This document shows positions 36,604 through 43,427 of a stretch of DNA of 62,979 bases, in pieces. Positions within the stretch are counted from its first letter, which is position 1. Every line of letters starts with the position of its first letter. This stretch comes from Eubacteriales bacterium (lineage in GTDB: Bacteria; Bacillota; Clostridia; Oscillospirales; QAKW01). The stretch spans positions 1 to 62,979 of the forward strand of contig JAZQAE010000016.1 in assembly GCA_045544995.1 (NCBI GenBank). The letters are read 5' to 3'. Below the pieces are notes generated by a model, which was not told where the DNA came from, ran no database searches, and worked only from the letters and a program-made list of their open reading frames with translations. The translations under genes and the position numbers were made by a program.

Positions 36604-37395
36604 GTGGATTATTATATCCGGGCGTCCGAACATTTATCTGAAAAACCGGATAAGGATCATTTTTTTATGCATATGCATGATACTTACGAGATTTATTCTA
36701 TTAATGCAGGAAATGCAGATTATTATGTAGAAGGCACCTGCTATCCGCTTCAGCATGGAGATATTATGGTGATGCGAAAAAGCGAGTCTCACCAAATCGT
36801 ATTAAAGGATGATTCTATTTACGGAAGAAGGGTCATTAATTTTGACTTGCCGTTCTTAAAGCAGATTGATCCGGACGGTACGTTGCTGTCTATCTTCAAT
36901 GACCGCCCACTTGGACAGTTAAACCATTATCCCGCTGCGATGTTTCCTCAAAATAATTGGCAGTTCTTTTTAAAGAGGATCAACGCTACGGAAGATCCTG
37001 CTTTACGTTTATCGTATTTAATGGCCTTGTTAGGGGAACTATCTGAATGTTTTGAGGTTTTAAAAAGTATGGATCAACCTCAGGAGCCGGACACGGTCAC
37101 ATCGGTGATTTATTACATTAACCAACATATTACAGATAAACTATCCCTTTCGGTTCTTTGTGATGAATTTTATTTGAGTAAGGCACACCTGAATCGAATC
37201 TTTAAGCAATCCACCGGTGCTACCGTTTGGAATTATATCGTAACAAAGCGGTTGCTGCTTTCCAAAGAGCTACTTTCCTCCGGTATCACTCCCACGGATG
37301 CCTGTACTCAATGTGGTTTTCAGGATTATACGACCTTTTATCGTGCATATAAAAAGCAATTTGGAGTCTCTCCCAAGGCGGAGCAAAAGAAGTAA
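36604..37395 (+). CDS. AraC-family transcriptional regulator
   Basis: N-terminal cupin HMHDTYE; C-terminal double HTH (LSKAHLNRIFK, CGFQDYTTFYRAYKKQFGVSP). Confidence 0.93.
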   Translation: MDYYIRASEHLSEKPDKDHFFMHMHDTYEIYSINAGNADYYVEGTCYPLQHGDIMVMRKSESHQIVLKDDSIYGRRVINFDLPFLKQIDPDGTLLSIFNDRPLGQLNHYPAAMFPQNNWQFFLKRINATEDPALRLSYLMALLGELSECFEVLKSMDQPQEPDTVTSVIYYINQHITDKLSLSVLCDEFYLSKAHLNRIFKQSTGATVWNYIVTKRLLLSKELLSSGITPTDACTQCGFQDYTTFYRAYKKQFGVSPKAEQKK

Positions 37396-37398
37396 ATC

Positions 37399-37427
37399 TT
37401 GCAGAATAGCTGTAGAAGTGTTATAAT
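37399..37427 (+). promoter_or_regulatory. sigmaA promoter of the rnf operon
   Basis: TTGCAG-17-TATAAT with TG extension. Confidence 0.65.
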
Positions 37428-37456
37428 TAATTAAATTGTGTTCAAGGAGTAATGAA

Positions 37457-39337
37457 ATGAAAAAGATCCTCGGTTATTTAAAAACCCATCTTTTTTATGT
37501 GCAGATTTTAACTGTTTTGACGGTTGCCTCTGCATTTATACCTGCCCTTAATCCCATCGTGGCTTACGGGGAGAAGAATACTCATATGCTGTTTTCTATC
37601 TTTGCCGACCTTGGCGGCATTGAAAAGTATTTTGAAAGTATATTGAGTTCTTTTAGTTTGTTCGGAACGATTTTATATATAGTGATGCTCTTGTTCTATG
37701 TTGGAATGGTGTGCTACGTATGCGGATTGATTTTGATCTGGTCCAAGAGCCAAGGCGGAAAGCGGTCGATCTTTACCGGGGCGCTGATTTTCCTGCTCAT
37801 CTATCTGGTTTTGTTTGTCGTTTATTTTGGCATCAACCGCGAATTGTTGTTTAATGGGAGCGAATTAATTAAAACGACGGCGGACGTTTGGCTAAAGATC
37901 CCCCTTGGAATCTATTATCATCTGGCTTTGGCAATCGGTGTAACCGTTCTTTCTATTTTAGGAAGCGGTATTGATTTTAAGGCTGTATGGTATGGCTTAC
38001 GTTTGAACTGGATTCATCGTTTTGACGGCGGTGTCCATCCAACGCCCCATAAAAATACACGCTCCAAGCCCATCGAAACACTTCCTCCGCAAAAAGAGAT
38101 GATCTATCCGTTGCTTCAGCATATCGGTGCGATTTGCGAACCCTGCGTAAAGGTGGGAGATTACGTAAGAATCGGGCAGATCATTGCCGATAGCGATTCT
38201 TCCATCTCTGCGCCGATTCACGCTTCGGTCTCCGGTACGGTTATTAATATTTGTGATTGGGATCATCCCACCGGTACACGAATCCCTGCAATTATTATTG
38301 AAAACGATTTTGAAGATAATCGTTCGGAATGTTTCCATGAAGCATGTCCGGATTACGAAACGAAGAGCCCGGAAGAACTGATTGCTATGATCCGAGAAGC
38401 CGGAATTGTAGGTATGGGCGGAAAAGGATTTCCGACCCACGTGAAACTTTCTTCTGCTTTAGGCCGTGTCCATACGTTAATAATCAATGCAGCAGAGTGC
38501 GAGCCTTATCTTTCCAGTGACCATCGTGTTATTCTTGAATCCATTGATGACCTGATGGGCGGAATCAAATTGGTACAGTACATTTTGGATGTCAAGCAGT
38601 TTTATATCGGAATTGAAAACAATAAACCGGATGCTATCTCATTGTTGCACAAACGGATGGGCCGCTATCGAAACCGTGTCGTCATTCTAAAAACCAAGTA
38701 TCCTCAGGGTGGGGAAAAACAATTGATTCGTGCGGTTTGCGGTCGTGTGGTGCCTTCTGGCAAGTTACCCACGGATATTGGGTATCTGGTATTAAACGTT
38801 GATACCATTATCGCCATTTATCGTGCAGTTGTAACCGGAACGCCGTTGATGCGCCGTATCGTGACTGTGGCCGGCCATGGTGTTGAGAGAACCGGTAATG
38901 TAAATGTTCGTATTGGCACACCGTTTTCTGCAGTACTGGATTATTTTGGTTTTAAACAATCCACCCGGAAAGTCATCATGGGCGGACCGATGATGGGAAC
39001 GGCACAGTATTCACTTGACGTTCCGGTGATAAAAGAAACGTCCGGATTAATTTGTATGACGAAAGAGCAATTGGCGATCGATCGTGACGTGCATTGTATC
39101 CGTTGCGGCAGTTGTGTTTCGGCGTGTCCCATGCATTTGATGCCAAGTTATATTGCTCAATATGTAAAAGCAAAGCAATTTGATCGCCTGCAAAACCTTA
39201 ACGTGTCGGATTGCATCGATTGTGGCTGTTGTTCTTTCACCTGTCCGGTTAAAATACCGCTGATTCAGTATATGAGAATCGGAAAACAAAAAGTAAAAGA
39301 GATGAACTATAAGAAGAGGGGAGGAAAGCGCGAATGA
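37457..39337 (+). CDS. rnfC: Rnf complex subunit RnfC with extra N-terminal multi-TM domain
   Basis: GGVHP, QHIGA, PIHASVSGTV, GIVGMGG, NAAECEPYL, YPQGGEKQLI, GGPMMG and two 4Fe-4S motifs, preceded in frame by ~188 mostly hydrophobic aa; ATG after AAGGAG. Confidence 0.92.
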   Translation: MKKILGYLKTHLFYVQILTVLTVASAFIPALNPIVAYGEKNTHMLFSIFADLGGIEKYFESILSSFSLFGTILYIVMLLFYVGMVCYVCGLILIWSKSQGGKRSIFTGALIFLLIYLVLFVVYFGINRELLFNGSELIKTTADVWLKIPLGIYYHLALAIGVTVLSILGSGIDFKAVWYGLRLNWIHRFDGGVHPTPHKNTRSKPIETLPPQKEMIYPLLQHIGAICEPCVKVGDYVRIGQIIADSDSSISAPIHASVSGTVINICDWDHPTGTRIPAIIIENDFEDNRSECFHEACPDYETKSPEELIAMIREAGIVGMGGKGFPTHVKLSSALGRVHTLIINAAECEPYLSSDHRVILESIDDLMGGIKLVQYILDVKQFYIGIENNKPDAISLLHKRMGRYRNRVVILKTKYPQGGEKQLIRAVCGRVVPSGKLPTDIGYLVLNVDTIIAIYRAVVTGTPLMRRIVTVAGHGVERTGNVNVRIGTPFSAVLDYFGFKQSTRKVIMGGPMMGTAQYSLDVPVIKETSGLICMTKEQLAIDRDVHCIRCGSCVSACPMHLMPSYIAQYVKAKQFDRLQNLNVSDCIDCGCCSFTCPVKIPLIQYMRIGKQKVKEMNYKKRGGKRE

Positions 39338-40323
39338 AGGAATTGATCGTATCATCCTCACCCCACTCTAAAGACCATCGAACGGTCAGCAAGATTATGG
39401 GTTACGTTCTGGTGGCTCTTGCACCGGCTGCAGCCGGTGCGGTGATCTATTTCAAGTGGAAAGCGTTCTTTTTGATTTTGATCAGCGTTCTGTCTTGCGT
39501 TCTTTTTGAATATCTATATAATTTGATATTCAAAAAAACACAAACTCTTTATGATTGCTCTGCAATTGTGACCGGAGTGCTTTTAGCATTCAACCTTCCG
39601 CCATCTGCACCGTTATGGCTCCCACCGATTGGTGCGTTTTTTGCGATCGTTGTCGTAAAAATGTTGTTTGGCGGTCTTGGAAAAAATGTATTTAACCCTG
39701 CAATTGCGGGACGTATCTTTCTCTTTCTGTCCTTTTCCACCTTTATGAAAGGACCCTGGATCACTCCTTTTGATGGTGTGTCTTCTGCAACGCCGTTGTT
39801 TTATCTGAAGAATAGCGGGGGAGAACTTGTTAATATTACAAACAAATATACCGTCGTCGATTGCATGCTGGGCAGTATCGGTGGATGTATAGGGGAGACC
39901 AGTGCGGTTCTTTTATTGTTGGGAGGAATTTTTCTTCTCTATAAGAGGGTAATCACCTGGCATATTCCTGTTTCGTTTATCGGTACGGTCGCCATAGTTA
40001 CGTTACTGTTTCCCCGATTTCACGATATTTCTGCTTGGCAGTATATGCAGTATCATATTTATAGCGGCGGCTTGTTTTTAGGTGCCTTTTTTATGGCGAC
40101 TGATTATTCTACCAGTCCCATAACCCCCTGGGGACGTGTGATCTATGGTGTAGGATGCGGTCTCATAACGGTCTTTATCCGTTATTATGGCGGTTATCCG
40201 GAAGGTGTCTCTTTTGCCATTTTGCTGATGAACTGTTTTGCATCGTATTTAGATACAAAAACCATTCCTAAAAAATTTGGAGGTGAGCGTCATGTCTTCT
40301 CATTTGAAACATTCAAAAAATGA
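39334..40323 (+). CDS. rnfD: Rnf complex subunit RnfD
   Basis: SSSPH, FGGLGKNVFNPA, SATPL FMN site, GCIGETS, FFMATDY, GYPEGVSFAIL. Confidence 0.96.
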   Translation: MKELIVSSSPHSKDHRTVSKIMGYVLVALAPAAAGAVIYFKWKAFFLILISVLSCVLFEYLYNLIFKKTQTLYDCSAIVTGVLLAFNLPPSAPLWLPPIGAFFAIVVVKMLFGGLGKNVFNPAIAGRIFLFLSFSTFMKGPWITPFDGVSSATPLFYLKNSGGELVNITNKYTVVDCMLGSIGGCIGETSAVLLLLGGIFLLYKRVITWHIPVSFIGTVAIVTLLFPRFHDISAWQYMQYHIYSGGLFLGAFFMATDYSTSPITPWGRVIYGVGCGLITVFIRYYGGYPEGVSFAILLMNCFASYLDTKTIPKKFGGERHVFSFETFKK

Positions 40324-40909
40324 TTTCTTGCACATGGCGTTGCTTCTGTTTTTAATTACAGCGATCGTTGGTTGTATTCTCTCGGTCGTTCATTATTATA
40401 CTGATCCTGTCGTGGAACGTTCGGCGCAAGAGCGTTTGGAGGAATCCTTGTGTGAATTGTTTCCGGATGCCGAAAACTTTGAGATCCCGATCGAATATCC
40501 TCAGGAAATTCTATTGGGAACAGTTCGTGTTCCGGTTAAAACAGTTTATCTTGTTAAAGATCGTGCGTCTGAGGTATCCGGCTACTGCGTAAATGTGAGT
40601 CCTCAATCTTATTCGGATGCTTTAGATCTTCTTGTTGCAATGGATAAGACCGGTGCTGTCACGGACGTGGAGATTTTATCCATTTCCGATACCCCTGGAA
40701 TCGGTCTGAAGGTGCAGAGCAACAAAACGTTTAGATCCAGCGTGAAAGGCCTTGTTGATTCGGCAAAAATTGTAAAAGAAACTCCCTCTTCTAAAGAAGA
40801 GATCCAAGTAATTGCCGGAGCAACGGTTTCTTCGTCTGCCTATATTAACGGCGTGAATGCTGCCATTGAAGCAGTACAGATCCTTCGAGCGGAGGAGGTG
40901 CAGAAATGA
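40292..40909 (+). CDS. rnfG: Rnf complex subunit RnfG
   Basis: N-terminal TM, DTPGIG, IAGATVSS FMN motif; ATG after GGAGGTG. Confidence 0.9.
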   Translation: MSSHLKHSKNDFLHMALLLFLITAIVGCILSVVHYYTDPVVERSAQERLEESLCELFPDAENFEIPIEYPQEILLGTVRVPVKTVYLVKDRASEVSGYCVNVSPQSYSDALDLLVAMDKTGAVTDVEILSISDTPGIGLKVQSNKTFRSSVKGLVDSAKIVKETPSSKEEIQVIAGATVSSSAYINGVNAAIEAVQILRAEEVQK

Positions 40910-41508
40910 AACTGAAAGAATATTTTAAGTCCGGAATTCTTACGGAGAATCCGGTATTAATTCAACTGTTGGGGCTTTGTCCCACCTTAGCCACCTCTAC
41001 ATCATTGATCAATGCATTTTTTATGGGTCTTTCTGCTACATTGGTTTTGATTTGTTCCAATGTTTTAATTTCGTTATTACGAAAATTTATTCCGGAAAAG
41101 ATTCGTATTGTTGCCTATATTGCGATAATTGCCTGTTTTGTATCGGTGGTTGATATGTTGCTGGAAGCTTATTTTAACCCCATTTACAAAGCATTGGGCG
41201 TATTTATTCCGCTGATCGTCGTGAACTGTATCATTCTGGCTCGTGCAGAAAGCTTTGCTTCCGGAAATAAAGTCCTTCCCAGTTTTTTGGACGGCTTGAC
41301 CATGGGGCTTGGTTTTACCTTTGCTATTTCTCTTTTGGGCTTGATTCGTGAAGTGCTTGGAAACGGAACGATTTTTGGCCATGCTATTTTCGGCGGTGCC
41401 GCTCCTCTTGCTATATTGGCATTACCGGCCGGCGGCTTTTTAACCTTAGGCTTCCTGATGGCTTTGGCCCAGCACTTCATTAAACGTAGAGGAGGGAATG
41501 AATCATGA
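40906..41508 (+). CDS. rnfE: Rnf complex subunit RnfE
   Basis: ENPVLIQLLGLCPTLA, PLIVVNCIILARAE, IREVLGNG. Confidence 0.96.
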   Translation: MKLKEYFKSGILTENPVLIQLLGLCPTLATSTSLINAFFMGLSATLVLICSNVLISLLRKFIPEKIRIVAYIAIIACFVSVVDMLLEAYFNPIYKALGVFIPLIVVNCIILARAESFASGNKVLPSFLDGLTMGLGFTFAISLLGLIREVLGNGTIFGHAIFGGAAPLAILALPAGGFLTLGFLMALAQHFIKRRGGNES

Positions 41509-42101
41509 CAGAACTTAGTTTTGGCACCATTCTCGCCTTTGCAATTAATGCAATTTTGATTGAAAACATCGTCTTGAATCAATTCTTAGGGTGCTGTTCC
41601 TTTTTTGGTGTTTCTGAGAAGAAAGAAACAGCCCTTGGAATGGGCCTGTCCGTAACGTTTATCATGGGACTGTCCTCGATTGTTACTTATGGAATACATC
41701 ATTTGATTTTAGTTCCGTTGAAATTGGAGTATCTGCAAACGGTTTCCTTTGTGTTGGTGATTGCCGCCTTGGTTCAGTTTGTAGAAATGGTATTAAAGAA
41801 GTTTGCCCCAGTTCTTTATCGTGCATTGGGGATTTATCTTCCGCTCATTACAACGAATTGCGCAGTATTGGGCGTCTGTTTAAATAATATTCAGGACGGC
41901 TATTATTTTTGGACTTCGTTTTTTAATGCTGTCTTCACTGCAATCGGCTTTACGTTAGCGATTTGGATCTTTTCCTTGGTGCGTATTCGAATTGAAGAGA
42001 CCAGTGATATTCCGGAAGTATTTAAAGGGTTGCCTATTGCATTAATTTCGGCTGCTCTGTTATCATTTGGATTCATGGGCTTTAGCGGACTATCTTTCTA
42101 A
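41505..42101 (+). CDS. rnfA: Rnf complex subunit RnfA
   Basis: QFLGCC, LVQFVEM, LGIYLPLITTNCAVLG. Confidence 0.96.
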   Translation: MTELSFGTILAFAINAILIENIVLNQFLGCCSFFGVSEKKETALGMGLSVTFIMGLSSIVTYGIHHLILVPLKLEYLQTVSFVLVIAALVQFVEMVLKKFAPVLYRALGIYLPLITTNCAVLGVCLNNIQDGYYFWTSFFNAVFTAIGFTLAIWIFSLVRIRIEETSDIPEVFKGLPIALISAALLSFGFMGFSGLSF

Positions 42102-42113
42102 AAGGGGGAACTG

Positions 42114-42920
42114 ATGATGTGGATTGATGTTTTAAAAGCGGTTCTTACTTTGGGTTTGATTGGCGGTCTTTTGGGCGGTGGTTTGAGTTTTGCCGGTAAG
42201 GTTTTCCGTGTTCGTGAAGATAAACGCCGGGAAAAGATCATGGCGGTGTTGCCTGGAGCGGACTGCGGAATGTGCGGTTACCGTAGTTGTTCCCGCTATG
42301 CTGAGGCATTATTGAACGGAGATAAGGATTGCGCCAGGTGTCTTGTTGCGCAAGCAGAAGGTGCAGAAGCCTTGGCGGACATTTTAGGAATTAAGGATTT
42401 TAAATTTCATGAGAAGGTCGCTCATATCCGTTGTCATGGAAGTCATGATTTTGCAAGCCGTAAATATATCTATTATGGTATGAATGATTGTGAAGCGGCC
42501 AGCCGGCTTTTAGGTGGGTATATGACCTGTCAGTATGGCTGCCTGGGGTTTGGGAATTGCGTTGAGAAATGTCCCCAGAATGCGATCAGCATTCAAAATG
42601 GCGTAGCGCTTGTGGATCGTGAGCTTTGTAACGGATGCGGAATTTGTTTATCCGCTTGTCCTAAAAATGTCATCGAATTGATTCCTAAAGACAGCCATAT
42701 TATGATTAACTGTTCCAGCAAGGATAAAGGGGCTAAAACCCGGGTTGCTTGCAATATTGGGTGTATTGGCTGTAAGAATTGCGAGAAGAACTGCCCGGAG
42801 GGTGCCATCTCTGTTAAAGGAAATGTCTCGGTCATTGACTATGAAAAATGTATTGGATGCGGATTATGTGCAGAGAATTGTCCCCGTAATATTATTGAGA
42901 TTCCGGCGGTGGTAACATGA
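42114..42920 (+). CDS. rnfB: Rnf complex subunit RnfB
   Basis: TM anchor, LPGADCGMCGY, multiple CxxCxxCxxxCP motifs. Confidence 0.94.
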   Translation: MMWIDVLKAVLTLGLIGGLLGGGLSFAGKVFRVREDKRREKIMAVLPGADCGMCGYRSCSRYAEALLNGDKDCARCLVAQAEGAEALADILGIKDFKFHEKVAHIRCHGSHDFASRKYIYYGMNDCEAASRLLGGYMTCQYGCLGFGNCVEKCPQNAISIQNGVALVDRELCNGCGICLSACPKNVIELIPKDSHIMINCSSKDKGAKTRVACNIGCIGCKNCEKNCPEGAISVKGNVSVIDYEKCIGCGLCAENCPRNIIEIPAVVT

Positions 42921-43396
42921 TGAATCAAGAATTAGCCTTAGAATTAGTTCGTAAATTACAGGATCATCATCTCGAAATTGCGCATGCTGAATCATGCACC
43001 GGCGGTCTGTTATCCAAGTATATTACCGATCAGCCGGGGGCGTCCCGGGTCTTTCAATGCGGTGTTGTTTCCTATAGCGGAAAGATCAAACATCAGATTT
43101 TAGGTGTTTCTCAGGAAACGATAAATCAACACGGTGAAGTCAGTGCTGAGACAGCGCTTGAGATGGCCGATGGCGTTCGCCGGCTTGCGAATAGCCAGAT
43201 TGGCGTTGGAATTACCGGAATTGCCGGGCCCGGCGGCGGATCCAAGGAAAAGCCGGTGGGATTGGTGTATTTTGCTGTTTCCTATCGGGATCACTGTGAA
43301 GCCGTACGTTTGGAATTGTTTGATTTAAAGACACGGGAAGAAGTTCGTGAAACAACCGTTCAGTCCGTGTTAGAGTATTTGTTAAAGATCATATAA
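42917..43396 (+). CDS. CinA C-terminal / PncC-like NMN deamidase
   Basis: AESCTGG, PGAS, ITGIAGPGGGS..KPVGLVY. Confidence 0.9.
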   Translation: MMNQELALELVRKLQDHHLEIAHAESCTGGLLSKYITDQPGASRVFQCGVVSYSGKIKHQILGVSQETINQHGEVSAETALEMADGVRRLANSQIGVGITGIAGPGGGSKEKPVGLVYFAVSYRDHCEAVRLELFDLKTREEVRETTVQSVLEYLLKII

Positions 43397-43427
43397 AAAA
43401 GAGTCCATGGTTTCCATGGACTCTTTT
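43397..43427. terminator. Bidirectional terminator
   Basis: AAAAGAGTCCATGG-TTT-CCATGGACTCTTTT between convergent genes. Confidence 0.85.

Follow-up and report, generated by a model that had tools for sequence, protein, structure and literature searches.

The rnf operon of the window begins with an rnfC gene fused to a membrane domain

Many anaerobes rely on the Rnf complex as their main ion-motive enzyme. We analyzed the rnf operon found in a stretch of 62,979 nucleotides (nt), hereafter the window, which is contig JAZQAE010000016.1 of an Eubacteriales bacterium (GenBank assembly GCA_045544995.1). The operon has the gene order rnfCDGEAB, and its first gene, rnfC, encodes a canonical RnfC core preceded in frame by 186 residues that are predicted to cross the membrane four times (Table 1). 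Listing of the open reading frames (ORFs) and translation revealed a single open frame that runs from 37436, or from the ATG at 37457, to 39337. A first-pass annotation, made from the sequence alone, had placed the start of the RnfC core at the FDGGVHP motif, with the frame open upstream from an ATG and about four hydrophobic helices in the extension. Our results bore this out, as F189 of that motif is encoded at 38021, the frame is open throughout 37457-39337, and hydropathy and AlphaFold2 returned the same four segments. The domain had also been regarded as additional to separately encoded RnfD, RnfG, RnfE, RnfA and RnfB; indeed, all five genes follow the fused rnfC in the window.

Residues 187-615 matched NCBIfam model TIGR01945 (rnfC) from model position 2 to position 433 with 540.4 bits, against a cut-off of 245.95. 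Pfam identified RnfC_N at residues 188-285, a Nuo51-type flavin mononucleotide (FMN) domain, an SLBB domain and a 2x[4Fe-4S] ferredoxin domain, and Complex1_51K was matched at E 4.5e-48. The core contains the two CxxCxxCxxxCP motifs CIRCGSCVSACP and CIDCGCCSFTCP, whose eight cysteines are invariant across 18 sequences; the cysteines of these two motifs in RnfC are reported to bind [4Fe-4S] clusters (PMC12174285). We propose that ferredoxin:NAD+ oxidoreductase activity (NAD, nicotinamide adenine dinucleotide) would still be expected of a complex containing the fused RnfC.

We took the ATG at 37457 as the start because AAGGAG lies seven bases upstream and because the start position is conserved in most of the related loci examined. 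Comparison of the start sites at 18 loci (the window and 17 others) revealed a Shine-Dalgarno-like purine run before a start located 20-27 codons upstream of the FIPxxNP motif in 14 of them. The start signal is plainest in genus g1, to which the window's genome belongs, as each of eight loci has an ATG 26 codons upstream of FIPxxNP behind an AAGGAG-type motif. The exceptions are L022 and L025, in which the purine run precedes an adjacent TTG, L019, in which it precedes only the GTG, and L026, in which none is evident. The good ribosome-binding site and promoter announced by the first-pass annotation fared differently: the former was upheld, while the latter stood only in part, as TTGCAG/TGTTATAAT was read by eye, is absent from the list returned by the consensus scan, and matches the -35 hexamer at only three of six positions.

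The fusion is conserved across a family of gut bacteria and maintained by selection

A word-indexed search with residues 1-190 of the fused protein returned 47 protein clusters (90% identity), 46 besides the window's own, all of them 608-627 amino acids (aa) long, 55-83% identical to the query and endowed with RnfC domains. The membrane domain is present in 46 of the 49 species genomes of the family, distributed over three genera (g1, 28/29 plus the window's genome; g18, 5/7; g19, 12/12), and complete fused frames span 622-658 aa where the contig allows. All 26 family genomes that are at least 90% complete carry it; the three misses are 60, 64 and 85% complete. Furthermore, when 185,579 species, each represented by one genome, were scanned with a sequence pattern, 27 loci were retrieved, every one in a metagenome-assembled genome (MAG) of an uncultured 'Eubacteriales/Clostridia bacterium' from animal or human gut. 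Conservation of the fusion among related MAGs, one of the points raised by the first-pass annotation, was thus found in 46 of 49 genomes. The opposite outcome that it had envisaged, relatives encoding the two parts as separate genes with a stop near the junction, was not encountered among these genomes, and no stop occurs at the junction.

Comparison of eight g1 species pairs gave a proportion of nonsynonymous differences (pN) of 0.12-0.25 in the membrane domain versus a proportion of synonymous differences (pS) of 0.66-0.87, which is saturated, while pN in the core was 0.08-0.16. As judged from these proportions, the membrane domain is under purifying selection.

No Shine-Dalgarno-like motif was detected at candidate starts in the 25 codons before the core at any of 21 family loci, in agreement with the earlier view that no convincing ribosome-binding site precedes the core, and two g18 loci have no start codon at all within these 25 codons. 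From these sequences we infer that only the fused protein is made. We also found, in a public sequencing run, an independent contig of 213 nt that covers 37938-38150 without insertion or deletion, which provides weak support for continuity across the junction. At the level of gene sequences, we consider confirmed a family-wide fusion under selection, which would make RnfC a polytopic membrane protein.

Table 1. Features of the fused rnfC gene and of its operon in the window.
Feature	Coordinates	Strand	Remarks
AraC-family transcription regulator gene	36604..37395	+	Directly 5' of fused rnfC; context only, no rnf link shown
Possible promoter	37399..37427	+	TTGCAG, 17-nt spacer, extended -10 TGTTATAAT (37419-37427); read by eye
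Shine-Dalgarno AAGGAG	37444..37449	+	Seven bases before ATG 37457
Fused rnfC gene	37457..39337	+	626 aa plus stop; stop codon 39335-39337
N-terminal membrane domain, aa 1-186	37457..38014	+	Matches no known family
Predicted membrane helix 1, aa 11-32	37487..37552	+	Ends in invariant F27-x-P29-x-x-N32-P33
Helix aa 45-62, first predicted outer loop	37589..37642	+	Bears invariant G53, Y58, F59
Predicted membrane helix 2, aa 66-95	37652..37741	+	Hydropathy and AlphaFold2
Predicted membrane helix 3, aa 101-126	37757..37834	+	Invariant N127 comes next
Predicted membrane helix 4, aa 150-170	37904..37966	+	Invariant P149 just before
Linker, aa 171-188	37967..38020	+	Short helix 174-187 rich in aromatic and basic residues; invariant Y179
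Canonical RnfC core, aa 187-626	38015..39334	+	RnfC_N barrel-sandwich, Nuo51-type FMN/NADH, SLBB, two CxxCxxCxxxCP motifs
rnfD	39334..40323	+	TIGR01946, 314 bits vs cut-off 207; SSATPL flavinylation-type motif present
rnfG	40277..40909	+	Best NCBIfam match TIGR01947, 82 bits, below cut-off 102
rnfE	40906..41508	+	Both Cys motifs present
rnfA	41505..42101	+	NCBIfam search
rnfB	42114..42920	+	TIGR01944 above cut-off; NF005503, 236 bits vs cut-off 252
PncC/CinA-type nicotinamide-nucleotide amidohydrolase gene	42917..43396	+	TIGR00199, 151 bits vs cut-off 69
Terminator-like hairpin, then T run	43397..43427	+	3' of the PncC/CinA-type gene

Predicted structure and topology of the membrane domain

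Kyte-Doolittle windows placed hydrophobic segments at about residues 12-32, 66-94, 104-125 and 150-170. The AlphaFold2 model of the domain, computed with 17 orthologues, reached a mean predicted local distance difference test score (pLDDT) of 79.5 and a predicted template modelling score (pTM) of 0.73, with helices at 11-25, 45-62, 67-95, 101-132, 141-146, 150-170 and 174-187. Identity between genera is 23-33%, yet the domain can be aligned over its whole length, and 11 columns are invariant across the three genera. Nine of them (F27, P29, N32, P33, G53, Y58, F59, N127 and P149) lie at the predicted outer face; the other two are L93 and Y179.

Both termini of the domain are predicted to be cytoplasmic. 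The main argument for the C-terminus is that RnfC must be cytoplasmic, a location with which the even number of helices is compatible. The charges largely agree with this topology, as Lys and Arg are enriched in the N-terminal tail, the second loop (96-104) and the linker, and the first loop has an acidic composition. Across the aligned family sequences, the membrane domain has neither a conserved His nor a conserved Cys, which argues against a redox cofactor such as a haem or an Fe-S site. Complex prediction with the domain and the alignments of RnfD, RnfE and RnfA, run without controls, gave no verdict in either direction (scores of 0.00 and 0.00).

The membrane domain has no detectable relative outside the family

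Residues 1-186 reached no Pfam or NCBIfam cut-off, and Pfam searches with 17 orthologues returned scattered weak matches to domains of unknown function, none of them in more than three members. The best candidate by name, DUF420 (PF04238), was rejected, as the match (E 0.0075) scored 17 bits against a cut-off of 30.5 and weak matches occurred in only 3 of 17 members. Comparison of the domain model with the Protein Data Bank (PDB) using Foldseek, which covered solved tetraspan folds such as MS4A/FcεRIβ and claudin/TARP, gave no match at E<=0.001; the best TM-scores, 0.34-0.44, belonged to generic four-helix membrane proteins. The ESM Atlas returned unnamed clusters only, with a recognition value under the mark set by the tool.

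A profile built from the domain was then run, without a word index, against 1.84 billion representative proteins; it matched eight of them, and no stand-alone homologue came to light. One is an additional full-length fusion of 625 aa. Among the short ones, the three inspected by sequence (P0049, P0051 and P0056) veer into unrelated sequence midway, like frameshifted or mis-assembled copies, and the other four are 69-86 aa long. Restricting the profile search to proteins of 102-338 aa left two fragments, one of which continues into RnfC_N. Outside the family, a match at G026:C45 (E 4e-5) proved to be a hydrophobic stretch in an unrelated ORF far from rnf.

Several possible sources of the domain were also discarded. 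Kinship with RseC/MucC (PF04246) is contradicted by the lack of a match at E<=1 in all 17 domain sequences, by an hhalign probability of 5% against six RseC sequences of the same order, and by architecture, since RseC has a Cys-rich N-terminal head and two membrane helices whereas the domain has four helices and no conserved Cys. Hpre_diP_synt_I ('Gx transporter', PF07456) is absent from the matches of the 17 members and gave an hhalign probability of 0.3%. Internal duplication of RnfD, RnfE or RnfA received hhalign probabilities of 0.05%, 0.5% and 0.4%, respectively. Finally, fusion of a neighboring gene found no counterpart at four loci of sister families, none of which has a small multi-helix gene 5' of rnfC.

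The architecture is also rare outside the family, contrary to the possibility, raised earlier, that it might already be common. Among 151 genomes of the order, RnfC frames measured 418-512 aa except in three genomes (G146, G153 and G116). Likewise, in a sample of 401 genomes of the phylum, the window's frame alone exceeded 540 aa among the 150 of 225 matches listed. The long frame of G146 results from open non-coding sequence before a normal start. The frames of 512-539 aa that were checked were explained in the same manner, as normal genes behind open non-coding sequence in three f85 genomes and, judging from the sequence as read, in G504. In G116, a genome from a different family of the same order, RnfC shares its frame with a PF07456 membrane domain (L124, G116:C7 79-1932; 617 aa). 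The PF07456 gene and rnfC are separate and overlapping in its relative G039 (L125, 479-1222 and from 1152 onward), and the join in G116 is probably recent or the product of an indel error. The third genome, G153, encodes an RnfC paralogue in a frame of 692 codons (L029, G153:C1 1378-3453), whose N-terminal 260 residues are Cys-rich and soluble; we take this extension to recall the zinc-ribbon domain associated with MetV/MTHFR.

A single origin of the fusion and a second, canonical rnf operon

We built a maximum-likelihood tree of 66 RnfC cores by a quick search, with the Shimodaira-Hasegawa-like approximate likelihood ratio test (SH-aLRT) as its only support measure. All 21 fused cores form one clade (SH-aLRT 99), nested in a group with the main RnfC of the other families of the order. 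L079, L101, L089 and L102 were kept in the tree; they have very long branches, probably through a wrong frame, and lie apart from the fused clade. The simplest reading of this tree is that one fusion event took place in the ancestor of the family.

In g18 and g19, all 15 genomes with RnfC have exactly one, and it is fused; the fused protein must therefore serve the only Rnf of these cells. The description of the locus as an 'undescribed system' consequently went too far, as what the lineage has is its ordinary Rnf with one modified subunit, the sole Rnf in two genera. Conversely, at least 24 of 30 g1 genomes, the window's included, also carry a canonical RnfC of about 440 aa. A second, canonical operon, whose presence had been left as a question by the first-pass annotation, does exist in the window's genome (G000), where rnfCDGEAB follows ATP synthase genes on contig C76 (L005, 8231-14042, on to 17145). 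The second RnfC copies form a clade of their own (8 rows, SH-aLRT 100) inside a different RnfC group that also includes other families (19 rows, SH-aLRT 99). A binning error is unlikely because both operon types recur together in most g1 genomes.

The RnfG encoded by the C76 operon is unusually long (391 aa). After this operon, translations read by eye indicated a small gene, a gene for a PF07456-type membrane protein, a lipoprotein-like gene and an ApbE-type gene; the PF07456-type protein is 29% identical to the PF07456 domain of G116. The G+C content of the window (44.4%) is at the low end for this genome, whose contigs above 5 kb (n=99) average 48.4% with a standard deviation of 3.0, and C76 has 51.2%.

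Fused rnfC and rnfD are retained in reduced operons of genus g1

Two g1 genomes, G024 (L068, 302-3727) and G052 (L069), have lost rnfG, rnfE, rnfA and rnfB from this operon, and the PncC/CinA-type gene comes immediately after fused rnfC and rnfD. Each of these genomes is 98% complete, and RnfA and RnfE come from the second operon only. Between G024 and G052, nonsynonymous (dN) and synonymous (dS) divergence were 0.058 and 0.975 for the membrane domain, 0.072 and 1.007 for the RnfC core, and 0.152 and 1.281 for rnfD. These values point to strong purifying selection on the fused rnfC as well as on rnfD in both genomes. Further signs of decay were observed elsewhere in the genus. G009 (L073, 1700-3382) has no rnfB in its fused operon, and the second conserved Cys of RnfE, which we take to be a ligand of the membrane [2Fe-2S] cluster, is replaced by Ser in G009 and by Gly in G019 (L070, 2795-3406). 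Within the genus, RnfE and RnfA have diverged furthest in these two genomes. The fused RnfC had both of its Fe-S motifs intact at all 14 loci checked.

Judging from these gene contents, the G/E/A/B genes of the first operon can decay when a second operon is present, while fused rnfC and rnfD stay. The retained RnfC and RnfD would either form hybrids with subunits of the second operon or act as an independent unit, an idea with which the conserved outer face of the domain, as modelled, is compatible. Species that keep only fused rnfC and rnfD amount to a natural experiment on which parts of Rnf are separable.

A membrane tether or scaffold is the most likely role of the domain

We propose that RnfC of this family would be made as an integral membrane protein, in which a four-helix N-terminal module, with an extra helix in its first outer loop, is connected by a linker of about 20 residues to an ordinary RnfC with FMN, the NADH site and two [4Fe-4S] clusters. 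Together with RnfD, RnfG, RnfE, RnfA and RnfB encoded downstream, it would still form a ferredoxin:NAD+ oxidoreductase that pumps ions. The new module would keep the NADH module permanently tethered to the membrane, next to RnfD, and may contribute a seventh membrane element to the complex. Accordingly worded, a built-in membrane tether or scaffold beside RnfD is the role that we consider the most likely, and a reasonably probable one; the topology, the place of the module next to RnfD and its structural role are what we infer. The first-pass annotation had suggested a variant Rnf complex with a tetraspan module acting as anchor, assembly factor, sensor or docking site. Its architecture stands, and these four roles are not distinguishable here.

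Several observations count against this proposal. One helix suffices for simple anchoring, as RnfB and RnfG show, whereas the domain has four helices and a conserved loop helix, and the position of most invariant residues at the predicted outer face, far from RnfC, suggests that it does more than anchor RnfC. Lys and Arg are abundant in the third loop too, so that the positive-inside rule is not clean. Both halves fold in the full-length model, but its pTM is 0.57 and pLDDT is below 50 in the linker (171-197), which means that the relative placement of domain and core is not predicted. The retention under selection of fused rnfC and rnfD in G024 and G052 after the loss of the four other genes, together with the missing rnfB of G009 and the RnfE cysteines lost in G009 and G019, suggests that the fused RnfC-RnfD pair may be retained for a purpose that does not depend on a membrane core of its own. 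Lastly, the fused protein is known here from genes alone, and all of its carriers are uncultured MAGs.

Some of these observations favor a different role, in which the domain would be a working seventh module, RnfD and RnfC would operate without RnfG, RnfE, RnfA and RnfB of their own, and the domain would dock an extracytoplasmic partner, for example an RnfG-type flavoprotein encoded by the second operon, or some other acceptor, or would sense the outside. Besides the 9 of 11 invariant residues at the predicted outer face and the intact, strongly selected gene pair of G024 and G052, where the only RnfA and RnfE are those of the second operon, the Fe-S motifs of RnfC remained intact at 14 of 14 loci despite the losses in G009 and G019, and a precedent exists in the reduced, unidirectional, RnfD-based two-subunit 'Nqr/Rnf-like' complexes (PMC10979944). 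However, the full six-gene operon of g18, g19 and the window makes an ordinary Rnf the ancestral setting, and the reduced operons are confined to g1, where G, E, A and B could come from the second, complete operon. Hybrid complexes would then account for the retention without any new activity. Moreover, no partner gene is conserved next to the operon, and the domain diverges fast between genera. We regard this role as unlikely, although it is the best placed of the alternatives to a tether.

A bolder version, which we hold to be more doubtful, is that the tetraspan domain, RnfC and RnfD make up a self-sufficient NADH-linked unit for transmembrane electron transfer. The domain would replace the scaffolding by RnfA, RnfE, RnfG and RnfB, and its outer face would pass electrons from the flavins of RnfD to an extracytoplasmic flavoprotein or acceptor. 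Such a unit would explain why fused rnfC and rnfD are selected where rnfG, rnfE, rnfA and rnfB are lost or degraded. If it exists, an ion pump would have been remodelled into a two-gene redox conduit, in parallel with the 'Nqr/Rnf-like' complexes.

It is less probable still that the domain is a fused assembly or stabilizing factor with a role comparable to that of RseC. RseC is located directly 5' of rnfC in several Clostridia, and stabilization of Rnf in the membrane is among the roles proposed for it (PMC9124969). The domain holds the same genetic position, and the window's genome, at 96% completeness, yielded no RseC. On the other hand, the sequence comparisons described above revealed no relation to RseC (PF04246 in 0/17 at E<=1; 5% by profile-profile alignment), and the helix number and the lack of a Cys-rich N-terminus differ as well. 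Furthermore, in the sample of the order, RseC occurs alongside the fused RnfC in all four g18 and g19 genomes and in one of three g1 genomes (four with the window's). Because RseC and the fused RnfC are found together, the domain is no substitute for RseC. RseC (PF04246) was found in 82 of the 151 genomes of the order, usually not beside rnfC.

Stop loss, an assembly error, or a soluble RnfC made from an internal start, with the upstream part separate or untranslated, can be set aside as highly improbable. Many g1 species do have a Met seven codons before the core, and the joined and separate PF07456-rnfC arrangements of G116 and G039 indicate that such joins can arise by a single change or error. 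Against this, many independent assemblies show the same join, which recurs in 46 of 49 genomes; none of the relatives has a stop codon at the junction, and the short matches are fragments that are frameshifted or lie at contig ends; purifying selection acts on the upstream part; internal starts lack a Shine-Dalgarno-like motif at all 21 loci; and the 213-nt contig crosses the junction without insertion or deletion.

Comparison with known Rnf and Rnf-like complexes

RnfC is, to our knowledge, the sole subunit without a membrane segment in the solved Rnf structures. Characterized RnfC proteins have no membrane anchor and are held by the two terminal arms of RnfD alone, according to two reports (PMC9588780; bioRxiv 10.1101/2024.06.21.599731). 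The fused protein resembles canonical RnfC, such as those of C. tetanomorphum (PDB 7ZC6) and A. woodii, in the full-length match of aa 187-626 and in the position of its gene at the head of rnfCDGEAB. It differs by the four-helix membrane domain of 186 residues that precedes the core, and thereby departs from the usual description of RnfC as peripheral and helix-free, with four predicted membrane helices in aa 11-170.

The closest conceptual precedent is the set of two-subunit 'Nqr/Rnf-like' complexes, in which an RnfD-like membrane domain is fused to a PF00175 NAD-binding domain and accompanied by an RnfG-like subunit (PMC10979944). Like these, the fused RnfC covalently joins an NAD(P)H module to a membrane domain, and the reduced subunit set recalls that of G024 and G052. 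In contrast, the membrane part described in that source is RnfD itself and the NAD module belongs to another family, whereas RnfD is a separate gene here and the membrane domain is unrelated to it (hhalign <1%).

Other additions to Rnf share only some of these traits. RnfB, RnfG and NqrF also bind a redox module to the membrane by their own N-terminus, as stated in PMC9588780, but their anchors consist of one helix without conserved loop structure, unlike the four-helix bundle with a conserved outer face found here. RseC of Clostridium ljungdahlii, a small two-helix membrane protein encoded directly 5' of rnfC, is needed for Rnf function (PMC9124969). RseC/MucC (PF04246) thus resembles the domain as a membrane protein segment tied to the 5' side of rnfC, and differs from it as a separate gene with two helices, a Cys-rich soluble head and no homology, which coexists with the fusion in g18 and g19. 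A 2025 review mentions, for Azotobacter vinelandii, a long C-terminal helix of RnfC, the only addition of this kind to RnfC that it names, and an RnfH subunit (PMC12174285). Like the membrane domain, these are additions that a particular lineage has made to RnfC or to the complex; however, they are C-terminal and soluble, while the addition described here is N-terminal and membrane-spanning.

Searches of full-text literature brought up no report of an RnfC with a membrane domain at its N-terminus, a scope outside which supplementary subunit alignments fall, and this conserved RnfC variant is apparently undescribed so far. Its significance is that RnfC would be a polytopic membrane protein in a whole family of gut bacteria, represented by ruminant and human MAGs. 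Docking of the domain on the membrane core, if it occurs, would alter the way in which the NADH module is assembled and held, and structural and engineering studies would then have a naturally 'tethered' Rnf at their disposal. Furthermore, because it has no detectable relative outside the family, the domain is a clear-cut example of how an ancient complex can recruit a membrane domain restricted to one lineage.

Genes surrounding the fused rnfC

The gene order C-D-G-E-A-B is preserved at 17 of 20 family loci, and no partner gene was found to be conserved beside the fused rnf operon. The AraC-family gene upstream of the fused rnfC matches NCBIfam models in its C-terminal AraC-type helix-turn-helix region alone, and all of these matches are below the cut-offs. 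Downstream, the PncC/CinA-type gene is probably the last of the rnf operon because its start overlaps the rnfB stop. This gene is also found 3' of the rnf operon in the relatives examined, and the apparent cotranscription of an NAD-salvage gene with an NAD-reducing complex is possibly of interest.

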